Below, piece after piece: positions 5,225 through 55,409 of a stretch of 64,000 bases of DNA (position 1 is its first letter; every line of letters begins with the position of its first letter). The notes below the pieces were generated by a model that was not told where the DNA came from, did not search any database, and saw nothing but the letters and a program-made list of their open reading frames with translations. A program made the translations under genes and the position numbers. Origin of the DNA: Chiloscyllium plagiosum (Eukaryota). Location of the stretch: contig NC_057752.1 in assembly GCF_004010195.1 (NCBI RefSeq), positions 5,141,535 through 5,205,534 on the forward strand, in the 5' to 3' direction.

Positions 5225-5630
5225 TGTCTTGGCTCTGTTGTTTGCACTTGCTTTTGAGTCAGAAGGTCGTGGATTTAAATTCCCACTCCAGATAATCTAG
5301 TCTGAGTCTTCAGTGCAGTACTGAGAGAGTGCTGCATTGTTGAAAATGCCATCTTTTGGACAAGATGTGAAACCAAGACTCTTATCTGCTTGCTGGGGAA
5401 GACATAAAATCTGCTATATGGCACTATTTGGAAAAGAAGAGGGGGATTGTCCTGATTACATCTTCCTTCAATTGACACCACACAACTTTTTATAATCTTA
5501 TTTTTGTGGAATCTTTCTGTGTGTAACACAGCTTTGCAATAATGTCAACCACTGCTCTTCAATCAGTTCATTGCAAGTAGAATACTTTAGATACTTGGAA
5601 GAGATGTAACAAAATGAAACATTTCATCTT
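5225..5630 (+). mobile_element. Deu-domain SINE (SacSINE1/AmnSINE1-like), decayed
   Basis: tRNA-like head (gagtcagaaggtcgtggatttaaattcccactcc) followed by Deu-like core gcagtactgagagagtgctgcattgttgaaaatgccatcttttggacaagatgtgaaacc. Related copies at ~19430, 23235 and 63335. Confidence 0.7.
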
Positions 5631-5687
5631 TGTTTCTTGGATGCTACAAACCTGCTATGGATTTCCTGCACTTTTCGTTTTTACTTC

Positions 5688-5800
5688 TCTAGTGATTGTA
5701 ACAAGGTCAGCCAAGTTGACCTCATAGAATCTCAGTTTCCTGATTGGGACTGTTAATCTGGTCCAATCAGGGAGCCCTGGCTGACAGATATAAACAGGAG
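5688..5800 (+). repeat. Gypsy 5' LTR, left half (CCAAT box and TATA box)
   Basis: Begins t(c)tagtgattgtaacaaggtcagcc, as do the LTR copies at 13917 and 54822. Contains ccaatc (5763-5768) and gatataaa (5787-5794). Confidence 0.85.
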
Positions 5801-7578
5801 ATTTAGCATCCTCACAGTTTAGGGGACTGACTCTGTGCTGGCTGGTACTATGGTCAGTATATTGCTGTTGCAGGTGGTTTCTGCTCCTTTTTTTCTGGGG
5901 TGGAAACCTGATTCCTGAACTGGCTGAATTATTTAGCCAGTTTGTTAACTGGCATTCCTTTAGTGAGGACTGATTGTTAAACTTCTGATGCACATAATGT
6001 GTTTCAGGTGTAGCTCAGTTCTTGTTAGAGGACTGTTGTTTCACTGGCTGGTTACAGCCTGTGTGTTACTCTTTGTCCTTTTCTCAAAAAAAGAGAAATG
6101 TTAATTTTGTGGTAGGGCTTAGCCCTTGGACTCTAGCTTTTTTTTTGTATGTGTCTTCACTTTTTATTGCTGTTTTGACTGAGCCCTTGTGGAAGACATG
6201 CATTTTACCAGAGGAGCTGTTCCTGTGGGGGGGGCCTAGCCCTGGGACTGGGCCTCTGAAGACTGAATGTGTGTGTGTGTGTGCTGGGAGGTGAGCACTT
6301 GCTGTATCCTGGAGTTTGGGAGAAGACCTTTCCTTCAGGAGTGGACCAAACCCCTGTGAGTTAACTGCACCTGTACTATGTTCCTGTGAGTGGGCCTGGT
6401 TTTCCAAGGCTGGGCCAGGACTCCATGAAGACTTAACACCTGTGTTGTGGGATGTGCATTTGCTGCCTTCAGGAGTGGAATCTGCCCTTGGTTGCGGACT
6501 CTGTTTTTAGCAATGGACTCTGCAGTTTGGAGTGGACTCTCATTCCGATGATGCACATTGTATACTGGAGTGGACTCTGTTTCTGGAAATAGACTCTATA
6601 TATTTTGAAGACTCTATAGATTTGGACTGTGTACCAGAAAGGATTTTTCTTTTGGTAATTAACTGTATTGTGGTGTTTCCTGGGTCTATCACCTGCACTG
6701 TCTTGTGTCCCTGGGTCTGGGAGGCTCATGGGTTGTCCTAAAAGCTATCACCCTGAGAGCCGGAGGGTGGGTAGGCCATCCTGTGAACCTGAAGGTTGGT
6801 AGGCTGTCCTGAAAGTTGGAGGGTGGGTAGGCCACCCTGATGCCAGTTGCCCTGAGAGCCAGATGTTGGGTAGGCCGTTCTGAGCGCTGTTGTCCCGAGA
6901 AGGGGTAATCGGGACGGCTGTCCTAGAGGTGGTCGAAAGGTCAGAGCAGCCGAGAGCCAGAAGATGTGTAGGGGCGGGCTGAGATCCGGAAGGATTGTGG
7001 GCTACCCTGCACACTGTTGTCCCAGGGAAGGGGGATGGGCTGCCCTAGAGATGGTTGAAAGGTGTGCCAGGATAGCCCACTGGCCGGATGGTGCATCGGG
7101 GTGGGTGAGAGCCCAATGGTATGTAGGGGCAGACTGAGAGCCAGAAGGTGGGTAGCCGTCCTCAGTACTGTCACCCCAGGCAGGTACCGGGGTGGGCTGA
7201 CCCAGAGGTGGTCGAAAGGTGTCAGGGTGGACCGAGAACTGGAAGGGGCATGGGGTGGACTGAGAGCCGGAAGGTGGGTAGGGGCGGGCTGCCTTAGTGG
7301 TCGGAAGGTGGGAGGGGTGGGGGCTTGCTGGGTCTGTGTTGTCTGCACGTTTGTATGTAACAGTATTGACTAATGTACAAATGTCACTGTTACTGTCTTG
7401 TCCTATGTGGAACTGGGATTTGAGGTTTGTTCTCATCACTGTAAAATGGTTGAACGGTAGGGTTTTGGGTCTAGTTTTGCTGCTCCTCTCCCTTGTAAAA
7501 GTGCTGTCTCTTGTGTACAGCTGTAACAGTTTTTTGTAAACTTTTGTAATTTAATAAAATATTTTTTAAAAACAGGAG
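5801..7578 (+). mobile_element. Non-coding poly(A)-type element, unit 1 (putative non-autonomous Tx1/L1-like retroelement)
   Basis: Colinear with unit 2 (7579-9288). Starts atttagcatcctcacagtttaggggactgact and ends in a T-rich tract, aataaaatattttttaaa, then a repeat of the upstream target aacaggag. No long ORF. Confidence 0.7.
6750..7320 (+). repeat. G-rich degenerate tandem array inside unit 1
   Basis: Recurring motif like ctgagagcc(g/a)gaaggtgggtagg at ~28-bp spacing, with a longer superimposed repeat (ctgt..tccc...gggctg.cctagaggtggtcgaaaggt) three times. Confidence 0.8.
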
Positions 7579-9288
7579 ATTTAGAATCCCCACAGTTTAG
7601 GGGACTGACTGTTGGCTGGGCCATGTGTTACTGCTGTTGGTTTTTTTTTGGGAGAACCTGATCCTAAACTGGCATTCTTATTCAGGATGGGTTTCTAAAC
7701 TGCCTGATCTACAGTCAATGTGTTTCAGGTCTAACTCCGTTCTCATTAGGGAACTGTTGGTTCACTGGCTGGTGACAGCCTGTTACGCTTTTTCTTTTAC
7801 TTTGAGAAAAGGACAATGCTAATTTTTTGGCAGGGCTTAGCCCTTGCACTCTAGTTTTTTTATGTTTTCACTTTTTTGGTTTGAGCCCCTGTGATAAAAT
7901 GTACCTTTCCAGATGAGCTGTTCCTGGGTAGGCCTGGCCCTTTGTCAGTGGACTAGGCCTCTGTAAAAACTGAACACATGTGTGTGCTGGAAGGTGAGCA
8001 TTTGCAGTGTCCCGGAGTTCAGGAGTGGACTGAACCTCTGTGAGTTAACTGCGCCTTCACAATGTACTGTGTTCCTGTGAGTTGGCCTGGTTCTCTGTGG
8101 ATAAACCAGGCCTCTGTGGAAACTGAACATCTGTGTGTGCTGTGGGGTGTGTATTTGCTGCCTTCAGGAGTGGACTCTGCATGCTGGAGTGGGTTCTGCC
8201 TTTGCTTGTGGACTCTATCCCTAAATGCATTCTCTCCACTGGAGTGGACTCCATTCCTGGGAATGGACTCTACATTCTGAAGAGAACGGTTTATGGTAAT
8301 GGACTCTGTACCAGAAAGGACTCCATTTGTTGGTAATTGACTGTCTTTTTGCTTGTTGGGATTATCACCTGCACTGCCTTGTCCATCCCTGGGTCTGGCA
8401 GGCCTTACTGTGAGTTGGGAGGCTCATAGGTCATCCCAAAAGCTGTCACTGAGGGGCAGAGTGTGGTTGGGCTGCTCTGATGCTGGTTGCCCCGAGAGCT
8501 GGAAGGTGGGTAGGCCATTGAGTGCTGTCGTCCTGAGAAGGGGTAATCTGGATGGGCTGTCCTGGATGTGGCTGATAGATGTCGGAGCAGTTGAGAGCCA
8601 GAAGGTGCATCAGAGTAGACTGAGATCTGGAAGGCTTGTGGGCTGCCCTGTGCACCCTCGTCCCAGGGAGAGGGATGGGCTGTCCTAGAAGTGGCCAGAA
8701 GGTGTCTGGGAAGTCCACAGGCCAAATGGTGCATCGGGTGGGCAAGAGCCAGATGGTATGTAGGGGCAGACAGCTGAGGGTGGGTAGGTAGTCCTTAATA
8801 CTGTCATCCCAGCAGGTACCAGGCTGGGCTGTCTTAGAGGTGGCCGGAGGGTGTGAGAGGCTGGTTAGGGAAGTTGGAAGGTGGGTAGGCTGTCCTGATT
8901 GCTGTCGTCTTGGAATGTGGGGAAAAAGAATGGGCTGTCCTAGAGGTGGCTGGAAGGTGTCAGGATGGACAGAACCGGAAGGGGCCGAGGGGCAGGCTGC
9001 CTTTGAGTGGCCGGAAGGTGGGAGGGACAGGTGGTTTGCTGAGTTGTCAGGGGTGTCTGTGACATATGCACTGTTCGGTTTATCAGACTGTGTACATGAT
9101 TGCATTGACTTGATTGATGTAAGGTGGGGTTTGAGGTTTGTCCTTGTTTCCCTGTGAACTGATTTGTATAGTGGGGTCTGGCTTTGCTGCCCCTTTCCCT
9201 TGTAAATTGCTGTTTCTTGTATATAGCTGTTAATGTTAACTGTTTGTAATTTGTACTTTTTAATAAAATATATAAAAAAACCCAGGAG
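7579..9288 (+). mobile_element. Non-coding poly(A)-type element, unit 2
   Basis: Starts atttagaatccccacagtttaggggactgact and ends aataaaatatataaaaaaac + ccaggag, after which the Gypsy LTR resumes. Same internal order as unit 1 but with many substitutions and indels. Confidence 0.7.
8440..9025 (+). repeat. G-rich degenerate tandem array inside unit 2
   Basis: Same gagagc(c/t)(a/g)gaaggtgggtagg-type motifs as at 6750-7320. Confidence 0.75.
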
Positions 9289-9423
9289 TGTCTGAGGTTC
9301 TGTTCACTCAAAGCTGGAGGTCTAAGGAAGCTGGATCAGTGTCAAGTACTCCACATGAGTAAATAAAGGGGGACTTGGTGACAGGATAACAGCCTCTGTA
9401 GAACATTTCCAGTGGTGATGAGG
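9289..9423 (+). repeat. Gypsy 5' LTR, right half, plus primer-binding site
   Basis: AATAAA at 9362-9367, LTR ends ...tttcCA at 9411, followed by g-tggtgatgagg (PBS-like) and then gag. Confidence 0.8.
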
Positions 9424-9493
9424 GAAAAATATGCTCCTGAAGACATTTGCTCACAACAGTCACCTTTTGAGTTGGGGTAAACATTTCTGACAT

Positions 9494-10440
9494 TATGCTG
9501 TTAACTTATTTGATCCTGCTGTTGAAGACTGGGCCTAGTATGTGGAAAGAATGTTATTTTTTTTTGGGCAAATGACATTGGAGTAGATGACAAGCACTGG
9601 CATCTCCAAATCGTGAGAAGCAATGAGTAATTCTCCTGACAGCTTGTGGACCAGCAGCTTTTTCGGTTACTAGGAGCCTAACATTTCCTGAGGCACCAGA
9701 CTAACTTTTTCAAGAGTTGATACGTTTAAGAAATATTACAACCCCAAGCCGCCTCTAATAGTGAGACGCAATCGGTTTTACTTGGCAGTTTGAGAACTGA
9801 AGAATCCACATTGGGATTTTTGAGGTTAATATTGATTAGATTTGATTCCCTTCGGCCTAACAAGTCCACACCGACCCTCCAAAGAGCAACCCACCCAGAC
9901 CCATTCCCCTACACCTAACATTACAGGCAATTTAGCACCTAACTTGCACATCTTTGGATGGTGGGAGGAAACCAGAGCACCCAGAGAAAACCCACGCAGA
10001 CATGGGAAGGATGTGCAAATTCCACACACAGTTGCCTGAGGTGGGAATTGAACCTGGGTTCCTGGTGCTGAGGCAGCAGTGCTAACCACTGAGCCACCGT
10101 GCTGCCCTGGCAGAGGCACGTGACTTCAGTTTAACTTATAATGAGATGCTGAGAGACTTTGTTTGGTATGTAGGATTAATGATGTAACCATGCAAAAGTG
10201 CCTATTAGCTGAAGCTCAACTGGACTTCAAACAGATATTGCAACTGGCATTATTAGAAAATGCAATCAGTGGAGCATGGGAGCTACAGGGTATCCTGATT
10301 GAAGTGGACACTCTCGCCACACCAACTGAGCTCAGGGAATACCAAATGAGTGAGGGCAATTGCATAGCCTCATTCAGGACATATCCTGAATAGAGGGGCT
10401 CTAGGTCAGCCCAAAACAAAGCCAAGCATCAGCCAAACAG
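9494..10440 (+). pseudogene. Gypsy gag remnant, interrupted by an HE1 SINE
   Basis: FDPAVEDWA*YVERM...ANDI near 9509-9580, and LVCRINDVTMQKCLLAEAQLDFKQ (ORF 10163-10393), typical of fish Gypsy gag. Frameshifted. Confidence 0.8.
9832..10107 (-). mobile_element. HE1-type V-SINE
   Basis: Minus strand reads gggcagcacggtggctcagtggttagcactgctgcctca (tRNA A/B boxes), the V-domain tgtgtggaatttgcacatcc...gtttcctcccac, and a (TCTAA)-like tail. Confidence 0.92.
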
Positions 10441-10501
10441 TAAAAATTTTCAGGTGCCAGGCCGGCAAGCCATTATGGTTGCTGCCAGTAGGGGGACTTC
10501 A

Positions 10502-11282
10502 AATCATTGAGATGGAGAGCACAGAAACAGACCCTTCAACCCAACTCGTCCATGCTGACCAGATATCCTAAATTAATCCAGCCCTGTTTGCCAGCACCTG
10601 GCCCATATCACGCTCAACCCTTCCTATTTATATTCATCCAGATGCCTTTTAAATGTTGCAATTGTACCAGCCTCCTCCACTTCCTCTGGCAGCTTGTTCC
10701 ATACTCACACCACCCTCGGTGTAAAATAATTTGTTCCTTGGGTCCCTTTTAAATCTTTTCCCTCTTATGTTAAACCTATGCCCTTGAAGTTTGGACTCTG
10801 CCACCCTAGGAGAAAGACCTTGTCACCCTTCAGCCTCTGCCACTGCAAGGAAAACAGCCCCAGCCTATTCAGCCTCTCCCTATAGCTCAAACCCTCCAAC
10901 CCTGGCAACATTCTTGTAAATCTTTTCTGCACCCTTTCAAGTTTCATAACCTCCTTCCTATAGGAGGGAGACCAGAATTGCACACAGTATTCCAAAAGTG
11001 GCCTAACCAACATCCTGGGTACAGCCTCAACAGGGCCTCCCACCTCCTGTACTCAATACACTGACCAATAAAGGAAAGCATACCAAATACTTTCTTCACT
11101 ATCCTTTCTCCACTTTCAAGGAACTATGAACCTGCACTCCAAGGTCTCTGTTCAATAACACTCCCCAGGACCTTATACACTTAATGGTAAGTCCTGCTCT
11201 GATATACCTTTCTAAAATGCAGCACTTCTCTAAATTAAACTCCATCTGCCACTTCTCGGCCCCTTGGCCCATCTGATCAAGA
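10502..11282 (-). mobile_element. 5'-truncated CR1 LINE fragment inserted between gag and pol
   Basis: ORF 10765-11043 (LEYCVQFWSPSYRKEVMKLERVQKRFTRMLPGLEGLSYRERL). Same family as the element at 1-2929. Confidence 0.93.
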
Positions 11283-11419
11283 CTCGAGACCCGCTGGACC
11301 TAAATGGAGTACGAGAACTCATAGGCCAGTATCCAGGAGAGTGTGCACCCTGGAAAGTCCACCTATATCTGGTTTGGAAGAGTTAAGTTGCTGAACAACA
11401 TCCAAATCAGAATCAATCA

Positions 11420-13354
11420 AAATAAACATCTGGTTAAATGGTCACCCAGTTCTAATGGAGGTTGATACCCAGTGTGCCTGTATCAGTGATCACAGAACTA
11501 GTCTTTAATAAAATTCACTCTGGGCACCAACCCTTAAGTTTGCGTAAGGCCTCAGCTAGACTGAGAACCTATACCAGGGAACCCTTACAGATTAAGGATA
11601 CAACTTTGGTTCTGGTCTCATGTGAGATGCAGCTTTGGTATGTACACATAGTAAAAGGCTCAGGCTTAAGCTTGATGGTGTGAAAGTGGTTCAGGATGAT
11701 TTACCTTGATTGGCTCAACATTTTATGATAAAACATGGTTGTCTCAGTGAAGTCCTAATTAAATGCCTATAAGTTTTTCAGAAGTGTCTACAGACTACCA
11801 AAGAAGACAAGGCCACCTTGCATGTTGACCAGGAAGCAATTCCACGATTCTACAAGACCTCCCCAGTGCTGTTTCCCTTGCATGCAAAAGTAAAGGCAGA
11901 AATCAGGAGGCTGGAAAGTGAAGAAATCATCAAACCAATCTAGTTTGTGGAATGGGCAGCACCGGTTGTACTGATGGTGAAGCCTGATGGATCAGTTTGC
12001 CTTTGTAAAGATTTTAAAAAAACTGCTTCTTGTAGCTGGATTAATACCCAATCCCTCTCAGAGAGGATTTGTATACAAAGCTGGTGCGGGGTAGGGGGGG
12101 GGTGTCCTTCATGAAGCTGGACATGAACCATGTGTACCTGCAATTGTGGTTAGGTGAGGATTCTCATAAGTATGCCACAATTAATGCCCATAAGGTTTGT
12201 AACAATATACGAGACTGCCATTTGGGGCATCATCAGCCTCATCCATCTTTCAGTGGACCATAGAGAATGTTTTTCAAGGTCTATCTCAGGCTCAGGTTGT
12301 CATTTAACTGGATGATGTGTTAATAACAGGGAAAAACCAATAAACAGCACTTCGAGAACTTGGACATCAATGTTTCTCCAAGGCAGGCATATGGTTTAGA
12401 TGGGAAAAATGTGTATTCCAAGCAGCCCAAAATACCAACTTGGTCTACAGAGTCGACAAGACTGGGTTACACCCTTTGGAAGATAAAGTGAGGGTGATCA
12501 AGGGTGCCCTGGCTCCCACGGCTGTACCGGAGTTTAGATCTTTCTTTGGATTGGCGAATTATTACGGAAAGTTCATATATAACCTGACCTCTGTCCGGGC
12601 ACCCTTACATCTACTATTGAAAAAGGGGCAGCCTTGGAAATGGTCTTGTAGATAATACATAGTCTTTAAGGAAGTTGTGTAAGATATTGGCATGCTATGA
12701 TCCTAGTCAAGGTCTGGTTCTGATATGCGATGCTTCCACACACGGTATCGGGGTAGTGTTGGTTTACAGATGGCTCAATGGAGCGGAATGCCCAATAGTT
12801 TATGGTTCCCGGACTTTGGCTCATGTAGAGCGTAAATATGCCCAGACAGAGAAGTAAGGTTTGATGGTCATCTTTGGTGTGAGAAAGTTCCACCAATACC
12901 CTTACAAATATAAATTTGTAACAGTAACAGTCCACAAACTCCTGCCAGAGCTACTCACAGAGGACAGGGCCATGCTGCCCATAGGTTGAATCCAGCAGTA
13001 GGCTCTCCATTCTCTGTGCATACAATTACAAGTTGGAACACCACTGGGGAGGCCGAGTAGCAAATGTGGATGCCTTGAGCCGCCTCCCATTGGCAGATAT
13101 TTCACTGGTGTCACTGCCACTGCAAGAGTTCATTCTGGTTTTAAACTTTCTGGACACCCTTTCGGCCATCACTGACAATATCAGATTATGAACACAAAAA
13201 GATCTGGTCCTGGCAAAACTAAAACAGCTGGTGGTAATGGAGGAAACCAAAGGGCCATCACATCCAGAATTGGAACCTTTCTGGACCCGGTGAGACTAGA
13301 TCACCCTTGAGGATTACATTTTATTGAGGAGCAAGAGTGATTGTCCCGAACAAA
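11420..13354 (+). pseudogene. Gypsy pol remnant (protease, RT, RNase H); integrase core absent
   Basis: WLNGHPVLMEVDT (protease), EWAAPVVLMVKPDGSVCLCKDFK, FMKLDMNHVYLQL and LDDVLITG (RT), RSFFGLANYYGKFI and LVLICDASTHGIGVVL...PIVYGSRTLAHVERKYAQTEK (RNase H). Many stops and frameshifts. Confidence 0.92.
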
Positions 13355-15420
13355 ATTGGGGGGAGGGTGAAATGGCATCAGGAACGTCAATGCTGGACAC
13401 AAGACTCCTCTACGCAAGAGAGACAGTTTACTTCAGGGAACAAAGTTTGGTGTCAAGACCATGGAAATAGCCCTGCATGGAGAAGAGGCGTGGTCGATGC
13501 GAGGTCAGGTCCCATGACACACAAAGTTTGGGTAGATGAGGCTATCCAGAAAAAGCACATGGACCGCATGAAACTTTCAAAATCGCAAACGTGGCAGGAG
13601 CAAAACATATCCTGCTCCTCAGAACAACCGGAAAGGCTGTCAGAACCCATGAGTTCTCCCTCTCTGTCTAGATCAAAGAAATCTTGGAGTTTGAGATGGA
13701 TACGGCAGATGTTGCAGCCTCGATACCTTTACCACTTGAAGAAGAGGATGAATTTCTTCCGAGATGCTCTGAGCACGAGAGGTGGACTATGGTCTAGTAC
13801 ACACTGCCCATATCCAAGGCTGAATTGGATGAGCTGGACCTGGTACAAAAACACCCCTGGAGAGGATATAAGACAAAGAACACAGGCCTACATCCCTGGT
13901 CTTACAGGGGGAGGGATGTAGTGATTGTAACAAGGTCAGCCTGGTGGATCTCTGTCCCTGGAAGGCTCAACGACTCCTGTTTCTGATCGAATGGCCAGTG
14001 GCCCTAGAACAGTATTCCAATGAGAGTCAGTGCCTTCAGAAAGTGAGAAGAAAACATCAGAGAAAATAACAACTCTGGGGAACAGTTCCTGAACTTGAAA
14101 GGGTTGGAGCAGGAAATCAGTCAACGTCCCTGCTCCTGATCGCCAATACTCCAAAAATGCCGACCTGTAAGGACAGGATTAAACAAATTTGTAATGTGAA
14201 CCATAGTTCCATATTCAACCAATATTCAACCAGAGTTTAATTTAAACATACAAAATGGCCACTTAGGGAAGGTACTGGAAAGTGGCTAGGCACCATGGAA
14301 CCATTCCCCAGCATGGATGATTCCTCTAATAAGCGAAGGTGAATGGGAGAAAATCATGAAAGGGAACAGATAATGTTGGAAGCTTTTCTGGACCATACCA
14401 AACCATGGAGATTTACAGCACAGAAGGAAGCCATTCAACCCACCATGCCTGTGCCATCCCTTTCTCAAATAATTGAACTAATTTCACTGCCCCACCATTT
14501 TCCCCAGCCTTGCATCATCTCTTTTCAAACATGGTTTTTTAATGGTACAGGGGTCCCTCCTGCAACCAGTCTATACTCCAATAACCCTCAAAATAATTTT
14601 CCACGATTGTCATTCCTCACTCTCTGAATAATGACTTTAAATGCATTGCCAGCTCAGCAACAAGTTTGTATTGAATCTTATGAAACAAACAAATTAATAC
14701 AAATGTTTTAGACACAGCTAACTTTGTGATCAAAAAGAAATAAAATTAAAACTTTTCATTGTAATTTTAATTAATCTTAGTTAAGGATGCACTTTATTCA
14801 AACTGTATGTATGTAGCTGTTGCACGAAGGAAAAGCAATTCCAAAGCTGAAAGTGAAGGGTTAAAAAAACTTATTTCAAACTATCAGAAATTAATAACTC
14901 TTTTGTAACTAGTTGAGAATAATTGAGCACACTGGACAGATAATTGAGGTTAATTAACCGCAAAGCTTAAGTCTGTAATGTTTTAACCTTAAGTCCCCTG
15001 TGTGCAGTGATAAGGAACAATAGGAGAGGAGCTCAGGCAATGTAAAAATGCTCTCAAATAATTTGGAAGGGTGGATGATTGTGTCTTTAAAAGGGTGAAG
15101 TCGCCTAGCACTTGTATGTTTAAGATTCAGGACTCATTCAGGAGAATAGCACTAGAGTAAGACAAAAGCATTTTGTCTGTCCTGTTGATTGGAAAATTGA
15201 TATGTGGTGTGGAAATACCTGACAAAGGAGGGAGAGGAATAATTCTAAAAAAAACCACACCAGTTCAGTGCACTCTCCTGTGTCCAACTGAAGTATAGGA
15301 AAGCTCCTGGCTTGAGTTAGTTGAAGTATTTGGAAATCTTCAACTTACTATAATGCCTCTGGCTCAAGGTGGTCATCATCAGATGTTCCAACTTCTCTTT
15401 GTTCTATTCTCATGGAAAGT

Positions 15421-19806: not shown

Positions 19807-20312
19807 ATAGAGCCATGGAGCTGTACAGCATGAAAGCAGACATTTTGGTCCAACTCATCCATGCTGACCAGATATTCTAAATTAATCTAGTCCCATGTGC
19901 CAGCATTAGGCCCATATCCCTCGAAACCCTTCTTACTCATATTCCCATCCAGCTTCCTCCACTTCCTCTGGCAGCTCATTCCATACATGCACCACCCTCT
20001 GTGAAAAAGTTGCCCCATAGGTTCATTTTATATCTCTCCCCTCTCACCCTAAACCTATGCCCTCTAGTTCTGGACTCCTCTACCCTGGGGAAAAGATCTT
20101 GTCTATGTGCCCTATCCATGCCCCTTGTGATTTTATAAACCTGTGTAAGGTCACCCCTCAACGTCTGATGCTCCAAGGAAAATAGCTCCAGCTTATTCAG
20201 CCTCTCCCTACAGCTCAAACCCTCCAACCCAGACAACATCATTGTAAATCTTTTCTGAACCTTTTCAAGTTTAACAACATCTTTCCTATAGCAGGGAGAT
20301 CAGAATTGAACT
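19807..20312 (-). mobile_element. 5'-truncated CR1 LINE fragment
   Basis: ORF 19976-20242 (GLEGLSCRERLNKLELFSLEHQTLRGDL...SRTRGHRFRVRGE) plus the CR1 3' UTR. Confidence 0.92.
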
Positions 20313-20356
20313 TGACAAGTATTAATGAGCAGAAAGAAATTTCAATGTCTTTGGTT

Positions 20357-22220: not shown

Positions 22221-22712
<492 letters not shown>

Positions 22713-25133: not shown

Positions 25134-25345
25134 GGAGAAAGTGAGGACTGCAGATGCTGGAGATCAGAGTTGAGAGTGTGCTGCTGACATAACACAACAG
25201 GTCAGGCAGCATCCGAGGAGCAGGAGAATCGGCATTTCGGGCATAAGCCCTTCATCAGGCCTGATGAGGGGCTTATGCCTGAAATGTCAATTCTCCTGCT
25301 CCTTGGATGCTGCCTGGCCTGCTGTACTTTTCCAGTACTACACTC
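25134..25345. mobile_element. Penelope-type palindromic remnant with back-to-back decayed hammerhead cores
   Basis: Inverted repeat centred near 25260 (...cataagcccttcatcagg|cctgatgaggggcttatg...). CTGATGA-stem-GAAA on both strands. Confidence 0.8.
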
Positions 25346-28300
25346 CCCCTTCTATTCTTACGCATTGTCTTGTACTCTCTGCTGAAAAAAACATGCGTGG
25401 CTTTGAATGTTGAAAGATCAGAAAGGATTCTGCTTTGAGATTCCATTTTCATATTAAGAATTATCAAATGGATGAGGTGCTTGAGGGCAGCCATTATCGG
25501 GCCTTTGAGTTCAAGATTATTGGCTGTTTTTGGAGATCAGTGTATTGAAAACAGCAGAATATGAAGGAATGTCATCAGAGAACTTACTCCCAAAGGATAG
25601 TAAGTTGTGAACGAGCCCATGAAGGAAAGACATGAATACAGACAGCTTAGTGAATTTTGTAGTTTTGAATGTTTTTTTTATTGAGATATGGATGGGGAAT
25701 TGGATGTAGTTAAAGAAAAGAATTCCATTTCATTTATATCAAATATTGGGATCTCTCACTTTCACATCACTATTGAGTGAGCATCTACAGTTCAAGATGC
25801 TATCTGAATGAAAGTTGTTGATGTCAAGAGCAGAGGGATTTTGGAGTTCAGTTTCAGATATACATGGCATTAAATGGACAAGACATGCACCAAGTGGAAA
25901 AGGCCATTCAAAAAAGCAAACAGAATACTGGGTTTTATGTAAAGAAGTGTAGAGTCCAAAAATCAAGACATAATAGTGAGTCTCTATAAAACTTTCATAA
26001 AGGAGTCAGCGCAGCATTACTTTTGAGCTTCATGCTCGTGGAAAGCAATTGAGAGGGGATACTGCAGATTCCTTAGGATGGGAGAACCAACAGAACACAA
26101 GACGCAATCAGATGAATGTCGTCTCTTTGTGCTGGCTGTAAAGGGTTGGACATTCCGACTATGCAGTGGTTAAGCACATAACTGTCCATAATTCAACACT
26201 GGCATTGAATTACATTATCAAGATAACAATTAGCCGAAACCAAACAATCTGATATCCGAGGTTAAGACTTAAGAACATTGTTGGGCTTTACTAACAAGTG
26301 GGTAGGATTTTCAGAGATTCTCATAAGCTCCTACTTTAACTTCACTAAAACCAGGAAAAATTAAATGGTTGTTTTCATTTTCAACAACTTTCCACAAATT
26401 CTGCCAATCTTCCACTGAAGAAATGGAATGGGGTTGTGTGTGAAGTGTAGGGATTGAGAAAGTCTTCTAATCTCAACCTGACCCAAATGTTTAATTCTAA
26501 CACTGGTACCCAGTCAAACTGCTGTCCTGATCTGTGCTGATATTTCACTTTGCTTCTAGTAACTTCAAAGTGAAGTACATTAAAGCACAGCAGTCTGGAA
26601 GAGTAGAAGCCAGGATCTCATTTGTCTATGGAGATCCAAAGGTTATGCACTTCCCTCAGTCCAGTGCAATGCATCATCTCACAACAGACATCAGAGTGGT
26701 TATGTTGACACCTGTTTGAGCAGCCACTCGCCAAGATAGTGTCAGCACAGATAAACTCAAGAGCAGTGGAAAATAATACCAGCAAAGACAGCTGTACTTT
26801 CAACAAAATAATTATTGGAAATCTCTGCCCATAGCTGTCACAGCATTTTTCAAAGCTATTTTCTCCTGTTCAGCAATCTGGCTGAATCCTGTCCTTAGCT
26901 GAGGTGGCAGATTAGAATGCCTGCTGCCAAACCATTGACAATGCAGAGAAGAAAGAGCATAGACCAGTAAGAATTCTGTCTTCTTTATATTTTTTTTCTT
27001 TTTCCCTCCTGCCTCTATCCTAAAATGAGTGAGACAACTGCATTTAGCTCACCTCCATTTGAATAAAGATTCAATTCTTCACACTACTCCAGGTATTCAG
27101 TTGATATGGTAGACTATGGGGTGGATGAAACAGGATGAAACACTTCCTGCAGAAACAAGGAATGGTGGAAATTAAGTGTGACTTGTGCTTGTGTACATTG
27201 GTGACAGAGATCAGACCAGATTGTCTTTCTGCTAAAGAATTAGCATAGAGGGAAGTGGGAAGAGAGAAAAAAAATAGAAAATACCTCAGTTAAAAAAAAG
27301 AGGGAAAATAAATTAAATATAAAAAGATGTATTTTTGTCAATCGAACACGATGGAAGTCCTCAACAAGAACTGTGTACTCTAAGGTCTAAATTCTTAAAT
27401 GAGCAGTTTGTGCAATGTGTGGGAAGTTTAAGACAGCCCTCTTGTTCCCACAGCTAATGCTTCCCTTATTGAAATAAGAACCTCTCAGATGTTTATTGAT
27501 GGGAGAAAGAGAGAATTTGCGCACTAATTCAGGAAAATGTACAAGGAGGAACATTCGTAACTTTCCCTTCTGTATAGCAAGACAATTCCTGGATGCTTTC
27601 TTTGGCAGATCTGTTGCTGTTTTCATTAAGCATATGCAAGCATTAAAAACACAGAATTCTAGGGTTCAACCCAGTTAAGCAGCTAATTTAAAACATTTTT
27701 TAGGCAAATACAAGGTGTTTCAAAATCAGTGCAGCTGCATCTGGACAAACTGCAAATGATCAGAAATTTTAAAAAGCATTTAAATAATGTGTTGGTTTGA
27801 ATCCAGCTGATAAGGCAGCTGATGTCGGAGACTGCATACGGCCCACCCAGGACTGAGAAGGTTGGAGCTATTGTGTGTCCCTTATGACGTTATAAAGAAT
27901 AGGAAATATTGTGACTGAGAGGGGAGTGGACAACGTTTTTCCATCCATATGTTAATACTCCTCTAACTTCCTGGCCTCAACGAAGCACATGAGAATTCTG
28001 TTGACCCTCCCTCTCTCTTTTGGGAACCACTTGAATGTTGTTCTGTCTCTGCTAACAGTATAGCTAAGGCAAGTATTTTCTGGCAGGCATTAGCTTTCAC
28101 GTTATCATTCCACAGCATAAGATATGGGACATTACCATTAAGAGATGCTTTCAAAGACTTTTCTCTCCATCTCCATTGGTGAAGCCAGAGTTCTTTAGTA
28201 TCAAACCCAAAAGGCCATTTCTTCATGCAGATCAGGATTAGTAAGTATTCACAGGTTATTCAGTGAGTGTAGCCCAAATATAAATGCCAGCTAACTTAAC

Positions 28301-28737: not shown

Positions 28738-29183
28738 GAGAAAGTGAGGACTGCAGATGTTGCAAATTGGAGTCGAAAAGTGTGGTGTTGGAGAAGCACA
28801 GCAGGTCAGGCAGCATCCAAGGAGCAGAATTGACGGTTCTGGTATAAGCCCTTCATCAGGAATGTAGGGGGTGGCTGAGAGATAAATAGGAGGGTGGGTG
28901 GGGCTGGGGGGGGGAAGGTAGCTTGGAAGGCAATATGTGGATGCAGGTGGGAGGTGATGGTGATAGGTCAGAGTGAAAGGTGTCCATCCTCCTTTCCACT
29001 TATCCGATCCACCCTCTGCTCCAACCTATCACCATCACTCCCCACCTGCATCTACCTATCGCCTTCCCGGGTACCTCACCCACAGAACATTCCTCCCCCC
29101 TCCTCATTTATCTCTCAGCCCCCTTTCTCCTGTTCTTTGGATGCTGCCTGTCTTGCTGTGCTTTTCCAGTGCCACACTTTTCG
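28738..29183. mobile_element. Penelope-type inverted-repeat remnant with a 17-bp flanking direct repeat
   Basis: Same left end as the 25134 element (gagaaagtgaggactgcagatg). Arms are mutually complementary. actctaaagatactcag occurs at 28721-28737 and 29184-29200. Confidence 0.8.
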
Positions 29184-30139
29184 ACTCTAAAGATACTCAG
29201 ACTTTATTCTCAGGTCTTGAGCTCTCCAGATTCCGTCAGTGAGCTTGATTAGCATGCCCATTATCAACAGCACCCTAGATTTGCCTGGTTCAGTTTTCAG
29301 CTGACCAGGTCTGTCACAGAGGGTCAATGTTACATCTGTTACTAGACATTCAGAATCATCATTTTGAAGCCAAATAACATCCCACTCCCCACACACCCCT
29401 CAAACCTCTTGAGACTCTACTCACGACCCCTTGCCTCACAAAGGAGGATGGTCAGTAGTTACTTGTTACACAGCTGAGTAGTGTGGACAGCAGATACCAG
29501 AAATACCCCAAATTTAGCTAGTGAACAACACAGTTAATCATAAACTGTGGGAGTACATTATCATCATCCTCTCCTGACCTAGACATCAACACAGTCTACC
29601 TGCCCCTACCAGCACAGACAGTCTAGAATTAAATTACGGTTAGCACCAAGCACTGGATGTATGAAAATGTGGTTTCCTACCTGACCTCCCAGGTAGCACC
29701 GTCGAGTAGCTGCCTTTTCAAGATTACAATATTTTGGAAGGACTACTCGGACAGATTGTTTTACACCAGTTAGCTTGATGTTCTGGTGTGACACCACAAG
29801 CTTATTCTTCATCAACTGAGAATATTCTGTGCCAGGTACAGCAGTATAAGTGCATCTAAATGGGTAGACTATCCAATTAATGATGCAATCACAAAGTCAG
29901 TTCTTTCTTCGCCTAATATCTGCACACACTTGTTACCCAACAATCCCTTGCTGAGAAAAAAAACAATCCTTTGCTGGAATCTAATAATAAACACTGGCCT
30001 TGGTTGTTTAAACCCCCTGAACTATCATGAGACTAAATACATTGAAGTGGGCAGTCCATTCTCATTGCCTGCCAACTGCCATACTTAATAATAAATGGAA
30101 TGAGAAATTTTACTTTATGAAAATCACAAAAGAGGATCT

Positions 30140-30492
30140 TAGTGAGTTTTGAGAAGATTTGTGGTTGAGGTTTTGGATGTAGGTTGAGGTTTTGGATGTA
30201 GGTTTGCTCACTGAGCTGAAAGGTTCATTTCCAGACATTTTGTTACCTTACTAGGTAACATCTTCAGTGGACCTCATGTGAAGTGGACCCCATCTACCAC
30301 CCCCTGAGAAAAGGAACAGGAAGTGACTTCACCACCAGAAATGACATTACCAACCCAAAGAAACCCAAACACATAAATAGAAAGCATGAATTTTCAGCCT
30401 TGCTTCGCGTGAGGCCCACTGACGATGTTACCTAGTAAGGTAACGAAACGTCTGGAAATGAACCTTTCAGTACAGCGAGCAAACCTACATAC
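30140..30492. mobile_element. Penelope-type element remnant (second family) with inverted arms
   Basis: Arm ~30196-30275 is the reverse complement of arm ~30411-30490. Each arm carries a hammerhead-like motif. Confidence 0.8.
30416..30455 (+). ncRNA. Minimal type I hammerhead ribozyme motif with an intact core
   Basis: CCA-CTGACGA-T-GTTACCT-agta-AGGTAAC-GAAA-CGTC-TGG: stem I CCA/TGG, core CUGANGA, perfect 7-bp stem II, GAAA, palindromic ACGU stem III, and GUC cleavage triplet (after 30452). Confidence 0.75.
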
Positions 30493-32003
30493 AAAAGAAG
30501 ATGCATGTAGACTGGTACAAGAAATAAACCAACAACGGCACTGGATTCCAACAGAGGCACAAGTAATTTACCCTAAATCACCCAGCATGTTTTCCAATTG
30601 TAAAATACATTGAATTTTCTCCCTCCTTTGCTTATTTTTCTATTCCAAAGAAGATAAATCATCTTGTGGAAGAAAGCCACAGGTGTTAGTAGTCCTCTGG
30701 TACCTTGGCCATGCGGCCTTTTATTGGATGGCATCTCTGTCAATGAGGCTTTGGTTGGTTAAACATAGTTATGGGGAAGTGCACATGAGAAAATCTTAGT
30801 TCCATGGTGCAGTTATTCACATAGCCATGAGGTAGTTCTTCCCTATATCATGAATGAAATGTCTGCACTGAACAGTTTTATACAGTGCACCTTTACAATG
30901 GGCATTTATACTTTGAATCAATTCAATCTTTCTGCAAAATTTAAGTAACATTCACTATTAAATTATTCCCATTAGCCTCCAAGTTTGATAAAGTTAATCT
31001 TTTTACCTGGACAGTGTCTCCTCTCAAATTGACCTAATTAATATAATTTTCAAATATTTGCATAATTGATATACATTCCATATTGCCTTCTGGATGAAGG
31101 TGTTCACATTTTAAATCCCTGACTGATGTGCCTTTCCCTACTTCTCTGAATTTGGCCCCTGGGTCTCTTGTCAACATTGACTAGATTCAAACATTAGTCA
31201 GTCTGTCTTCTTTCTGGCTGTAAAACATATCAGTTCTAGTGAACTGAAGCTGCTAACTAGGTTATGGCAATGAATGCTTCACAACACTGCAAAATAAAAG
31301 TCCTGCCATCCACAAAATCATTTTAAAACTGAAATATTTTACAGAAAATTCTGTTTGGAATATGTTCTTTTTCTATATAACACTCTATTCTTAGTAATTC
31401 TCCAAGCCAGTTCTGAGCAAACCATTGTTATGGTTTGGAATTAGCATGAATACACAAAAAATCCTTAACTCGGAGATTCAGTAATGTCTGCTCATTCATC
31501 TCCACTGTGCTACTAGATTCAGTTCAGCTAATTTTCTCTAATACTATCAGCATTAATACTATCAGCATTCTCTAATACTATTAGCATTAGCTGTATGTTT
31601 AAAAGAAAATCAAAGAAAATGCAAATGTTAGTGAAGTTTATCATAATTCTCCATGTTTGGTCTCGTTTAGAAAGGACACAGGTGTACAATCTGATGAAGT
31701 AGCATGTATTGTTCAAGCATGTAATTTCTCACATGTTGAATTAACAATTGGAGGTTGTGGGTCTCACTGCAGGGGAGGGGAAATCCGATGCAAATTCACC
31801 TTAGCTACTCTATAATAACTCTTGGCAGGTGGTAGATTGACAGTGGTTTGGGAGCCGCAATCGATACCCTTCAGTTCTTTATTCATTTTTAAGCACAGTA
31901 GTAGTTAATAAAATCACAAAAGATCATCCTCTCCTCTATGTCTGAATACAGCACTTGTTTCTTTACGAAAGTATAATGGGGAATGGAATTTGGAATTTAT
32001 AAA

Positions 32004-43720: not shown

Positions 43721-45967
43721 TTAGCCATTAATAGTCTATGAAAGCTCATTCAACCTGGAAAACACCAAAGCTGAGCCCAATCCTGTCCTCACCTGCTGTC
43801 TATGCACACATATTTAAAGCATTGTTACTGGTTTGCAATCGGGAGCAGGAACCCTGACAGAGGCGAATTAAATCACTCCTACCGCTGCCTTGCCTGAGAT
43901 TCATGGATTCACTGTGCATCAAGCCTGGCTTCTCCTGGCTCCATGGGTCAGTTGGGGATGCTGGACAGACCAGGATCATTTTAACACCAAACATATGGGA
44001 CTGGATGGGGTAGGAAGGTAAAATATAATCTAAGCCTATTCATACATAGAAGCTAGCTAATCCTATCCCCAGCCTTCCAATTATGTACCACACTATGCAG
44101 TGGCTCATCTAACTGCAACATTATTATTACAGTTCGTAAATTGGGCTGTTTTTGCAGTTTCTCAGATTAGTTAAAGGAGGGTTTTTTTCACTCACTTTTA
44201 GCTTCAGGCAATTACAAAATTATTTGCCAATAAATTTGGCCCAGGATCTCAAAAATTCATAATCCACATAATTTACAATCATTAACTTGTGCAATCTTGA
44301 CATTGTGACTACTGTATGACAACCACACTGACTCTCTCAAGTTGTAAAAAATATACATTTAGCTGTTTTACTTTCAGTGCTGTGGTGTTTATTTTAACAC
44401 TTTTTAGTTTTCAAATGCTACTGAGATTGTTGCTGAAACTGCTTCAGAGGAGATATTGACCCTAACCATTTCAAGCAGTGAATAATAATGATGCATGCAG
44501 GAGGAAATTCATGCAGGTGTCCCTGCAGTTTTCTCAGTTGATCTATGTATACTAATTCAACTCCTTCAAAGTCTTGGGGTCTAGCCTATAGTATTACACT
44601 CCCTGCCCCCGCAAATCAATCACCCCAACATCAATGTAAAAACTGCTTCCTGTTTGTATAGTTCCATAGGTAAGTCTACTACTGTCAAGTGTGGTATTGA
44701 CCAGGTCAATTATTCCTCTGTGCTCTTAGCTAATTGTAACACAGCATTTCCCCTCTGAACTGTCCGTAGGGAAATTGGCTCTTTGGGTGAGTTGCTGCAT
44801 ACTTGCCAGCTCTGGAACCACAACGAGAGCAGGTGAAAATTAGTGAGAAAGTTTTTTTTTGTCTTTAAATTTTTTTAGATGCCGATTTTTCTCTTGTCTG
44901 ACCATTGATATCATAAGACAAAACTGCAGAAAACCATAAGGTATTTTCTAAAAAAGGAAATTACAGGCTATTGATATTAATCGTACCCCTTGAATGAGAT
45001 CTTTTCCCTCCAAGGGCATATTATCACCTTTTAACAAGTCCATATCAAAATATTTGAATTGCAGTGTCCCTTCATGCTGCTGCCAAGATTCCTGATGAAA
45101 ATGTTCCTTCAGATGCGTATGATTGGATAAATAGGATTTTGCTTTTTTCCCCCTCCAGCACATTCCAGTTGATGGATTTTAACCGTATTTCCTAAGTGCA
45201 GTGCAGCCTTAAAGGCAGGAGGTTGATTGCCACCTCTAAGTTCTCAATAAATCAACGACAAAACAGCAGGAAAAGACCCTCCGGTGTCCAATTTTGACAT
45301 TAATGACCTAATCCATAGTGACCTAGTCAAGTTGGTTCCTGTTCAGTGAATAACCCGCTTCCCACAAATTGATTTCATCTCTCAGGAATATTCAATGGGC
45401 TTCTTCAGTTTGTGATGAAGATATTCACAGCTTTAACATGTATTGTGCTGCTGGTGGAATGTTATGACCATGCTGAGTGAGAAATCATGTTTTCAGTTCT
45501 ATGGTTTTGGTGACATGAGGATACTATCTTCTTTTCATTAGGTTTATTTACTTGGGTAACCTTCTTTTCATTAAGTATATTTCTTTATTCTGTCATTTTC
45601 TATCCCTTTTCTTTGCTGAAGGTACCATCTCATCTTGGTAACCCTTAAGTACATCTCTTAAGTAGGTGGTCTTGATGTACAAGTCCAATCCAGTGAGTAT
45701 TTCTCCAGTTATTTGACCTTGATGGGCAGCATAGCCTCACCATATCCACACATAAGCACTTTTCAAAAGGGCCACTTAAAAGCAATCAGGAATGGGGAAC
45801 TCTAGATAATTACTTTCCCCACTGCAGAGCCCTAGGGTACTGAGCCAATGTATCCTGGTTCATTTAAAGATTCTTTTAATTATTTTAATTTCATTGTCAC
45901 AGAGCTGGAGAACTTTATTTGGTAAGTAAGCTCAGGATGTTTAATTCCTATTCTTTTTATCTTTCAG

Positions 45968-46638
45968 ATAATTCATTGGCCACTAAAACAGGTGGCTGTT
46001 TCCCTTCTAAAGCCATGGTAACACTGGAAAATGGACAAACCCGAGCTGTGTCAGAGCTGAATCCTGGGGACTGGGTCTTAACAGTGAATGCAGTTGGCCA
46101 GGTGGTCCCCAGTCAAGTCCTTCTCTTTCTTGACAAAGAAGAAGAACTGAGAATCTCTTTTACTGTGCTGGAGACTGAAGATCCCAGACAGCGGCTGGAA
46201 CTCACAGCAGCACACCTCATCTTTGTTTCTGATAATAACACTGACAGAATGGAGAACTTTAGACCGACATTTGCTAGTCGAGTACGTACGGGTCAGTTCG
46301 TCCTTGTGAGAGAGATTGGCTCAGGCCAGTTGCGTTCATCTAGGATTAAAGCTATCTATGTGGAAGAGGACACTGGTGCCTATGCACCACTGACATCTCA
46401 TGGCACATTGTTAGTGAATAATGTACTGGCATCTTGTTATGCAATGATAGAGAAGCACCATTGGGCACACCTGGCATTTGCACCTCTCAGACTCTTTCAC
46501 TCATTGACTTCTTTGTTACCAGTTCTCCATCCTCGGTATGACAATGCCACACAGGAGAGTGGCATCCATTGGTACTCCAGGTTTCTCTACAGCTTAGGTG
46601 AAAAGGTTCTAGACAGGGAAATGTTTCACTCTTTATGA
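45968..46638 (+). CDS. dhh: Hedgehog family gene, terminal coding exon 3 (G|CF autoprocessing site, Hint domain, sterol-recognition region)
   Basis: Acceptor ttctttttatctttcag|AT, phase 1, matching exon 2 (G+AT = Asp). DNSLATKTGG|CFP (Cys codon 45997-45999), LTAAHL, GAYAPLTSHGTLLVNNVLASCYA, GIHWYSRFLY, TGA at 46636-46638. Open frame throughout. Confidence 0.96.
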
Positions 46639-49805: not shown

Positions 49806-50376
49806 TCATAGAGTCATAGAGATGTACAGCGCGGAAACAGACCCTTTGGTCCAACATGTCCATGCCGACCAGATAGCCCAACCCAATCTAGTCCCACCCG
49901 CCAGCACCTGGACTATATCCCTCCAAACCCTTCCTATTCACATACCCATCCAGATGCCTTTTAAATGTTGCAATTGTACCAGCCTCCACCACTTCCTCTG
50001 GCAGCCCATTCCACACACGCACCATCCTCTGCGTGAAAACATTGCCCCTTAGATCTCTTCTATGTCTTTTCCCTCTCACCCGAAACCTATTCCCTCTAGT
50101 TCTGGACTCCCCGACCCCAGGGAAAAGACTTTGTCTATTTATCCTATCCATGTCCCTCATGATTTTATAAACCTCCATAAGGTCACCCCTCAGCCTCCGA
50201 TGCTCCAGGGAAAACACCCCCACCTATTCAACCTCTCCCTATAGCTCAAATCCTCCAACCCTGGCATCATCCTTGTAAATCTTTTCTGAACCTTTTCAAG
50301 TTTCACAACATCCTTCCGATAGGAAGAAGACCAGAATTGCACGCAATATTCCAAAAGTGGCTGAACCAACGTCCTG
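49806..50376 (-). mobile_element. 5'-truncated CR1 LINE fragment, relatively young
   Basis: ORFs 50190-50447 and 49888-50223 encode the CR1 C-terminus. The tail reads (ctatgact)n on the minus strand. Confidence 0.95.
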
Positions 50377-50683
50377 ATGTCTTCAGGGTTAGTGAAGCAG
50401 AACAAAATTAGCCAGGATTTCCCTCTATTTATATCTAAGCCTTCCATCCCCTACCTCCTCCCTATCCCACTATCTATTCCCTGAGCTTTTTTGTGTTAAT
50501 TCATAGTATGTGGGCATCACTGCTGAACATTTATTTATTGCGCATTAAGGATGGGCAATAGATGCTGATCCAGTCAGCAATGCCCACATCCCATGAAGGA
50601 GTAAAATAAAACTCATGCCCCTCAAACTGACCATGCCAACCTGTGGTTCTCTACCCACCCACAACAGCCTTTCATACTCTTCA

Positions 50684-50922
50684 TGGGGCAACTTTTTCAC
50701 GCAGAGGATGGTACATGTATGGAATGAGCTGCCAGAGGAAGTGGTGGAGGCTGGTACAATTGCAACATTTAAAAGGCATTTGGACGGGTATATGAATAGG
50801 AAGGGTTTGGAGGGATATGGGCCACGTGCTGGCAGGTGGGACGAGATTGGGTTGGGATATCTGGTCAGCATGGACGGGTTGGACCAAAGGGTCTGTTTCC
50901 ATGCTGGACATCTCTATGATTC
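50684..50922 (+). mobile_element. Short CR1 3' fragment
   Basis: GNFFTQRMVHVWNELPEEVVEAGTIATFKRHLDGYMN plus a 3' UTR ending ctatgattct. Confidence 0.93.
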
Positions 50923-51272
50923 TGGTATTTCCATGCCCATTCACCCAGTTTATACCTGGTACAGAGCTAATGAACCCCATAGTAACAATGGGATGTGTGG
51001 AAATGCGTTTTTAAAAAAAACAGTAATTCAGTAATAACTGTCTTTTAAAAACTACTTTTACCAAAGCCCTATAAAAGTTTAAATAATCCAGACCATTAAA
51101 GTATTAATAGCAGAAAATACTGCACTTGGTATGACTTTATCTTGTACAAATAAACATTATGCAATTGGCAAGACATATCTAACAGAAACAGCTGTTAATC
51201 AAACTGGGGTGCAGCTGTTCCAACAGAATAATTGATGTCTGCACTTTCAAGCACACCACATTATGCATTCTT

Positions 51273-54821: not shown

Positions 54822-54909
54822 TGTAGTGATTGTAACAAGGTCAGGCAGATGGACATCACTGAATATGAATTCCCTGATTCGGGCTGTTAATTTGGTCCAA
54901 TCAGAGAGC
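54822..54909 (+). repeat. Start of another LTR of the same Gypsy family, running into the assembly gap
   Basis: tgtagtgattgtaacaaggtcaggcagatggac...ctgattcgggctgttaatttggtccaatcagagagc aligns with 5688-5776. Confidence 0.88.
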
Positions 54910-55409
54910 NNNNNNNNNNNNNNNNNNNNNNNNNNNNNNNNNNNNNNNNNNNNNNNNNNNNNNNNNNNNNNNNNNNNNNNNNNNNNNNNNNNNNNNNNNN
55001 NNNNNNNNNNNNNNNNNNNNNNNNNNNNNNNNNNNNNNNNNNNNNNNNNNNNNNNNNNNNNNNNNNNNNNNNNNNNNNNNNNNNNNNNNNNNNNNNNNNN
55101 NNNNNNNNNNNNNNNNNNNNNNNNNNNNNNNNNNNNNNNNNNNNNNNNNNNNNNNNNNNNNNNNNNNNNNNNNNNNNNNNNNNNNNNNNNNNNNNNNNNN
55201 NNNNNNNNNNNNNNNNNNNNNNNNNNNNNNNNNNNNNNNNNNNNNNNNNNNNNNNNNNNNNNNNNNNNNNNNNNNNNNNNNNNNNNNNNNNNNNNNNNNN
55301 NNNNNNNNNNNNNNNNNNNNNNNNNNNNNNNNNNNNNNNNNNNNNNNNNNNNNNNNNNNNNNNNNNNNNNNNNNNNNNNNNNNNNNNNNNNNNNNNNNNN
55401 NNNNNNNNN
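54910..55409. other. Assembly gap (500 N)
   Basis: Run of exactly 500 N, a round placeholder length, so the true size is unknown. Confidence 0.99.

Follow-up and report, generated by a model that had tools for sequence, protein, structure and literature searches.

The locus described here raises the question of how a retroposon of 1.7 kb, which encodes no protein on its sense strand, can retain a fixed 5' end beside the TATA box of another transposon, and this is its main point of interest. Two such units lie one behind the other within the long terminal repeat (LTR) of a Gypsy-type element, in a window of 64 kb (the whole stretch of DNA that was analysed; all coordinates refer to it). We considered where the LTR is interrupted, whether the two units arrived separately, and which insertion process could have produced their arrangement.

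The host LTR and its element

The upstream part of the 5' LTR, with a CCAAT box and a TATA box in its U3 (5688-5800, + strand), is similar to a 3' LTR stub and to a further LTR at 54.8 kb. Outside evidence came from four of 24 listed runs, aligned over 5550-9550 with an identity cut-off of 80%; one was an RNA run, and the others provided contigs of three organisms, namely A (X1), B (X9) and C (X12). Upstream of 5690, the flanks in the three contig runs diverge (405-412 contigs per run, agreement 0.37). The rest of the LTR, comprising the end of U3, R and U5 (9289-9411, +), was delimited from the loose ends and joints of empty sites; its AATAAA at 9362, its CA at 9410-9411 and the PBS-like sequence that follows (9413-9425, +, identified from its letters, with TGGTG from 9413) confirm the preliminary description, in which the LTR was split after 5800 and resumed at 9289.

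The internal region of the host (9426-13916, +) is a decayed Gypsy-type sequence with remnants of gag, protease, reverse transcriptase (RT) and RNase H, recognized through Pfam and through relatives of its fragments. Other repeats interrupt it at 9848-10101 and 10504-11245, and one frame contains 31 stops. One of the nine host fragments scanned matched Pfam RT_RNaseH_2 (12663-12854, E 4e-13), and relatives of the fragment at 12344-12652 carry PF00078, an RT-family domain; the order of protease and RT was read by eye from the fragments. Two fragments downstream of RNase H gave no Pfam match to an integrase, and the integrase core of the host appears to have been deleted. The polypurine tract ends at 13916 and is followed by the 3' LTR stub (13917-13952, +), which is truncated after approximately 35 nt and matches the start of the 5' LTR at 30 of 34 positions. 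With LTRs, PBS, polypurine tract and Gypsy-type RT/RNase H, the host has the features of a Ty3/Gypsy element, and it is long decayed.

Uninterrupted copies of the LTR are common. The top loose end behind 5800, which resembles the sequence from 9289 onward, was found in 723, 671 and 669 contigs of the three contig runs, and joints from 5794 to 9283 and from 5800 to 9321-9359 were present in X1, X9 and X12. As the empty LTR is common in all three contig runs, the 3.5 kb between the two LTR parts represent an insertion and not a standard part of the LTR.

Anatomy of the two units

Unit 1 (5801-7565, +) is an ORF-less retroposon with a conserved head (5801-5832), a T/G-rich body, G-rich internal repeats at 6750-7300, a T-rich 3' end and an AATAAA at 7553. 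Unit 2 (7579-9269, +) is an independent copy of the same family, with the same first base and an AATAAA at 9262; in both units, a T-rich tract precedes the AATAAA at the 3' end. The colinearity that had been noticed (5801-7578 with 7579-9288) was recovered by blastn (70% over 1316 columns, E 8e-161), and the units show 80-83% identity in ungapped columns, 74-112 gap events and a K2P distance of 0.23. Their shared start was also upheld: a 20-mer occurs twice in the 64 kb, against 0 in 100 shuffles, and both units (2/2) begin at the same base. A misassembly at the middle junction is excluded by an X1 contig (record 7), which spans 7476-7770 with 0 differing letters and 5 gap letters. The junction of tail, word and head is also spanned in organism B by a contig (X9 record 20) with 21 differing letters at single-copy depth, which represents the orthologous locus or else another stack.

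The units had been described as having no long ORF. This holds for the sense strand, where the frames of 104 and 121 codons were matched by 84 and 34 of 300 shuffles, but not for the antisense strand, where 182 and 280 codons run without a stop, lengths matched by 13 and 2 of 300 dinucleotide shuffles. The antisense ORFs were rejected as genes: they lie mostly over internal repeats, 15 of the 74 indels between the units keep the frame, and no homologue was found; the antisense translations of the two units are 44% similar over 66 aa, following the DNA repeat. A Pfam scan of 18 frames of the units yielded no meaningful match and no LINE domain. The units were likewise rejected as autonomous Tx1-clade LINEs, as no Tx1 ORF, neither ORF1 nor an ORF2 with APE endonuclease and RT, lies within them and their sense frames are of the lengths given above.

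A classification as SINE or SINEU was also discarded, since the Rfam and tRNA scans indicated that the head is not derived from tRNA, 7SL, 5S or U1/U2. The Rfam search, which covered 5500-14200, gave two matches at E up to 1; these lay outside the head and did not reach the gathering score, and the tRNA scan of head and tail found none. No match to a 5' self-cleaving ribozyme, like that of the R2 SIDEs, was obtained among the ribozyme families described in Rfam. Neither head nor tail folded better than shuffles (z -0.8 to +0.8). The head pattern had 0 loci in metagenome contigs and prokaryote genomes, as expected for vertebrate DNA, and an RNA run (X22) gave 0 reads on 5550-9550 from approximately 6% of the run, a sample too small to test expression.

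The target word and its duplications

Directly before unit 1 lies the target word ATATAAACAGGAG (5788-5800, +), a likely target-site duplication of 13 nt, as indicated by decayed copies that end at 7578 and 9288 and by joints into 5788 in X1 and X12. The copy between the units (7566-7578, +), bridged in both X1 and X9, agrees with the word in 9 exact letters at its 3' end and in 11 of 13 ungapped positions, and it is the sole other such site on the + strand of the window. The copy behind unit 2 (9270-9288, +) has an expanded A/C run, includes the TATA-like TATATAAAA, and agrees in 6 exact 3' letters and 9 of 13 ungapped positions. Thus, the repeat reported at the junctions is present, but its extent is likely the 13 nt of ATATAAACAGGAG and not caggag only, and therefore much of what had been taken for an A-tail is decayed target. 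The AATAAA signals stand at 7553 and 9262 as reported, but the tails behind them are short and merge with the duplicated word: in unit 1, a T-run and then four A's follow the AATAAA, and the sequence behind each signal is best read as a few A's and a decayed copy of the 13-nt word.

Taken together, the duplicated word at all three junctions, the 3' AATAAA with a short A-run and the empty site in all three contig runs support the target-primed anatomy that had been proposed. The layout of word, unit, word, unit and word is as expected from serial target-primed insertion, and the presence of the word at each of the three junctions bears out the proposal that the target is regenerated upon insertion.

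A dispersed family and the independence of its copies

Approximately 25,000 contigs per run match the 4 kb, LTR parts included. The summed depth, which is not a copy number, is approximately 280-1700 times that of the single-copy flank in the unit bodies and approximately 2500-6400 times at the 3' end of unit 1. Among the long pieces listed, 22 of 24 lie inside a unit (the two junction-bridging pieces were excluded), and all 22 differ from their own unit by 8-19% and from the sister unit by 20-32% over the same intervals; the 80% cut-off favours close pieces and the figure for the sister unit comes from global alignment, a different method, and what counts in this test is the existence of closer relatives than the sister unit. 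In X1, which includes the locus itself, all 7 listed pieces were closer to their own unit than to its sister. Of the 40 sites listed at which a unit departs from nearly all of the depth, 32 were used, 8 low-depth sites being excluded; here the family letter stands in the sister unit at 20 sites, the same departure at 6, another letter at 3 and a gap at 3. The depth and the behaviour of the listed pieces thus support a multi-copy, ORF-less family with two independent insertions at this locus.

Two outcomes named in the preliminary description as fatal to this interpretation did not materialize. One was that the LTR exists in a long variant of which the unit is an ordinary segment. In agreement with such a variant, the depth in the U3 and head bins exceeds that in the R-U5 bin, and the local 3' LTR, being truncated, is uninformative on the presence of the unit; however, empty LTRs form the top loose end in every contig run, and the insert comes with a duplication and an AATAAA of its own, so that we find this possibility barely credible. 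The other was that there are no other copies and that, after a single insertion, the second unit arose long ago by local tandem duplication across the repeated target words. Such an event would yield the identical layout of words and units and would account for the identical starts, and the six diagnostic sites with the same departure in both units also speak for it. Nevertheless, a local duplication is very unlikely, because every one of the 22 listed pieces is closer to its unit than the sister unit is, and because the sister has the family letter at most of the diagnostic sites (20 of 32).

Possible target specificity and transcription

Both copies within the window are situated at the same word (2/2), and in X1 and X12 there are multi-copy contigs in which head and target word adjoin each other (joint from 5846 to 5788, depth 108 and 139). 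As to the flanks of other copies, the comparison covers the top 6 loose ends per run, with 5106 others behind them, and random flanks would rank below those considered; that unit ends are absent from these top rows was given no weight as a sign of targeting.

The TATA box begins at 5789, and it is followed at 29 nt, in the register of the uninterrupted LTR, by an initiator-like motif. In both unit heads, an initiator-like motif (BBCABW) is found 25 nt from the TATA, at unit base 14. Transcription of the units from the LTR TATA box, as originally proposed, is doubtful as written: a TATA-driven start would lie 14-19 nt inside the unit and would erode the head, as the RNA would miss the first 13-18 nt, which both units have kept. 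The LTR-promoter model therefore needs an additional step.

A model for serial insertion

With a probability that we place slightly above even, the locus arose from two independent copies of an abundant ORF-less repeat, which inserted serially by target priming into a Gypsy-type LTR, at its 13-nt TATA word, with the enzyme of a Tx1-clade LINE acting in trans. In such a process, an insertion would proceed by target-primed reverse transcription at the word, with a Tx1-clade LINE presumably supplying the enzyme. Each insertion duplicates the word, and therefore the site becomes available again and stacks can grow. The template RNA may be the product of an internal promoter and begin at base 1, or it may begin upstream of the target by read-through, and a copied target word in the RNA might then anneal to the cut site, as has been postulated for R2. 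The exact 5' end would be kept because the RNA most likely starts at or upstream of the target. For R2, uniform junctions are reported when the RNA carries upstream target sequence, with annealing as the postulated cause (PMC3774820). The repeat family was probably derived from a LINE and is non-autonomous, being either LINE ends with the middle lost or the progeny of a once-truncated master copy. For the host, the insert puts 3.5 kb between the TATA box and R, U5 and PBS, and the LTR would therefore be disabled as a promoter of its provirus.

The main rival to serial insertion of a fixed-start repeat takes the unit for the 3' UTR of a Tx1 LINE, which we regard as unlikely. The first six letters of the unit read Ile-stop in frame, its composition and 3'-high depth resemble those of a LINE 3' UTR, and the depth of the head bin is high in X1 and X12 (2 of 3 contig runs), as expected beside conserved coding sequence. 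Two random truncations at one base are improbable, however (approximately 1 in the element length), unless the base is a hot spot, and no loose end before 5801 is found among the top 6 per run, a weak point against this rival. A once-truncated master copy would unite the 3' UTR and the fixed-start readings. It is also conceivable, though we think it quite improbable, that many A-rich sites receive insertions of this family, the word being no more than a favoured one. The start of the target is AT-rich, an L1-like cut context, which speaks for such a hot spot; on the other side stand the two window copies at one word and the adjacency of word and head in multi-copy contigs. A loose preference also has precedents, as SINEU-1 and SINEU-2 target their sites in just 23% and 13% (Kojima 2015, PMC4494074).

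A promoterless element that is transcribed from the LTR TATA box and ends at its own poly(A) signal, the model with which the locus was first presented, appears similarly improbable. The sense orientation directly behind the TATA, seen twice, and the BBCABW motif at the same distance in both heads agree with it, and host-driven transcription has been proposed for SINEU (PMC4494074). Against it, bases 1-13 cannot be restored from an RNA whose start is 14-19 nt inside the unit, a degenerate motif of six letters is weak, and directly upstream of unit 2 there is no U3 with a CCAAT box. A variant that supplies the missing step has a marginally better but still poor chance: in a promoterless 1.7-kb retroposon, the duplicated target word would be the promoter before the head's own initiator, and stacks would be self-renewing, with read-through RNA restoring the 5' end. 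If this were true, thousands of copies would have disabled the promoters of one LTR family while exploiting them.

Comparison with known systems

In the literature searched, which lay outside Repbase and most subscription journals, none of the titles and abstracts listed described this shark element or TATA-box targeting by Tx1. Several components of the proposed process are already known from PMC4494074, namely that Tx1 targets LTR elements, that SINEU-3 copies stand in tandem about a duplication, and that the host may drive transcription. Tx1-8_Crp and Tx1-4_AMi are described there as Tx1 families that prefer LTR retrotransposons, and Tx1L of Xenopus is cited for its sequence-specific insertion into another transposon, Tx1D (PMC4494074). 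In contrast to the present units, Tx1-8_Crp and Tx1-4_AMi are autonomous LINE families, and Tx1L is autonomous and targets a piggyBac-type DNA transposon. To the targeting of LTRs by Tx1, the locus would add an ORF-less passenger.

The closest parallels are found among non-autonomous elements. In crocodilians, 313 of 347 copies of SINEU-3 have Mariner-N4_AMi as flanking sequence, mobilization in trans is ascribed to Tx1-Mar, and tandem copies that sandwich a duplication were read as serial insertions; transcription of such a target-specific, non-autonomous retroposon from the host transposon was also proposed for SINEU (PMC4494074). Like SINEU-3, the units are non-coding, probably aimed at a site in another transposon and arranged in tandem around a duplication. 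Unlike the SINEU elements, which are shorter than 500 bp (except a dimer), have U1/U2 heads and target a Mariner, the units are 1.7 kb long, have no head matched in Rfam and sit at an LTR TATA box. The R2 SIDEs and R2/R1 SIDEs, which derive from LINEs, have no ORF, insert site-specifically with a borrowed enzyme and keep a fixed 5' end, and those at the R1 site have 14-bp duplications (PMC3414825). They have an HDV-like ribozyme head and an rDNA target, whereas the units match no ribozyme family in Rfam. By analogy with derivatives of the SIDE and Bov-A type, the units may have been derived from LINE ends; Bov-A and internally deleted L1 and Vingi are named as comparable LINE derivatives (PMC4494074). 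One-direction, head-to-tail arrays are also known from HeT-A, in which upstream sequence can give a promoter and buffer 5' erosion (PMC5537684); as HeT-A is telomeric and has a gag ORF, it offers only an analogy for head retention in the units.

The unit may be placed, in its mode of operation, beside SINEU-3 and the SIDEs, and it would belong among the passengers of Tx1. It provides a tractable case for a question left by Kojima 2015 (PMC4494074), namely by what means target-specific retroposons that lack a Pol III head achieve transcription and retain their 5' ends. For RNA-templated gene insertion, the combination of a sequence-specific LINE endonuclease with a non-coding passenger also has a modest interest.

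Representation of the U3 and head sequences

In the contig sets, summed depth, which is distinct from copy number, was several-fold higher over the U3 part of the LTR than over R-U5 and the unit body, and in those of organisms A and C (X1 and X12, respectively) the head, the conserved start of each unit, showed a several-fold excess as well (U3 and head, 5684-5951, versus 9302-9435). This excess may reflect the divergence of the present copy, or it may derive from a more abundant element that carries a U3-plus-head segment. In addition, a joint at 5846>5788, at which head-like sequence and 7 further letters are followed by the target word of the LTR, was found at a depth of 108 in X1 and 139 in X12, suggesting either a tandem of approximately 66 nt composed of word plus head or very short stacked pieces.

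The same LTR occurs again at 54822-54909 (15 differences in 86 nt), where it enters a run of 500 N (54910-55409) approximately 12 nt short of its target word; this gap might mark the position of an array that is hard to assemble.

At the junction 3' of unit 2 (9270-9288), a TATA-like TATATAAAA is re-formed, lacking a CCAAT box and lying a few bases farther than normal from the LTR R region.

The head can form a 5-bp hairpin (5808-5826 in unit 1; 7586-7604 in unit 2), and the T/C difference between the two heads preserves pairing with G; overall, the head folded no better than shuffled sequences.

Genomic context of the insertion

Among the other repeats are LINE fragments at 43-2929 (with an endonuclease match at 43-519), 10504-11245, 19807-20345 and 49808-50924, which we take to be CR1/L2-like and which include an inverted pair (49810-50923), as well as short elements arranged as fold-back inverted repeats, whose arms measure 61-106 nt (25154-25365, 28767-29190 and 30190-30496).

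Exons 2 (22305-22570) and 3 (45889-46635) of a hedgehog gene were identified on the forward strand by Pfam HH_signal and Hint matches, with almost equal scores for Shh and Ihh. As a search of the window for exon 1 motifs found none, intron 1 of this gene probably holds the Gypsy element together with the two units, all in sense orientation, and would thereby gain three AATAAA signals.
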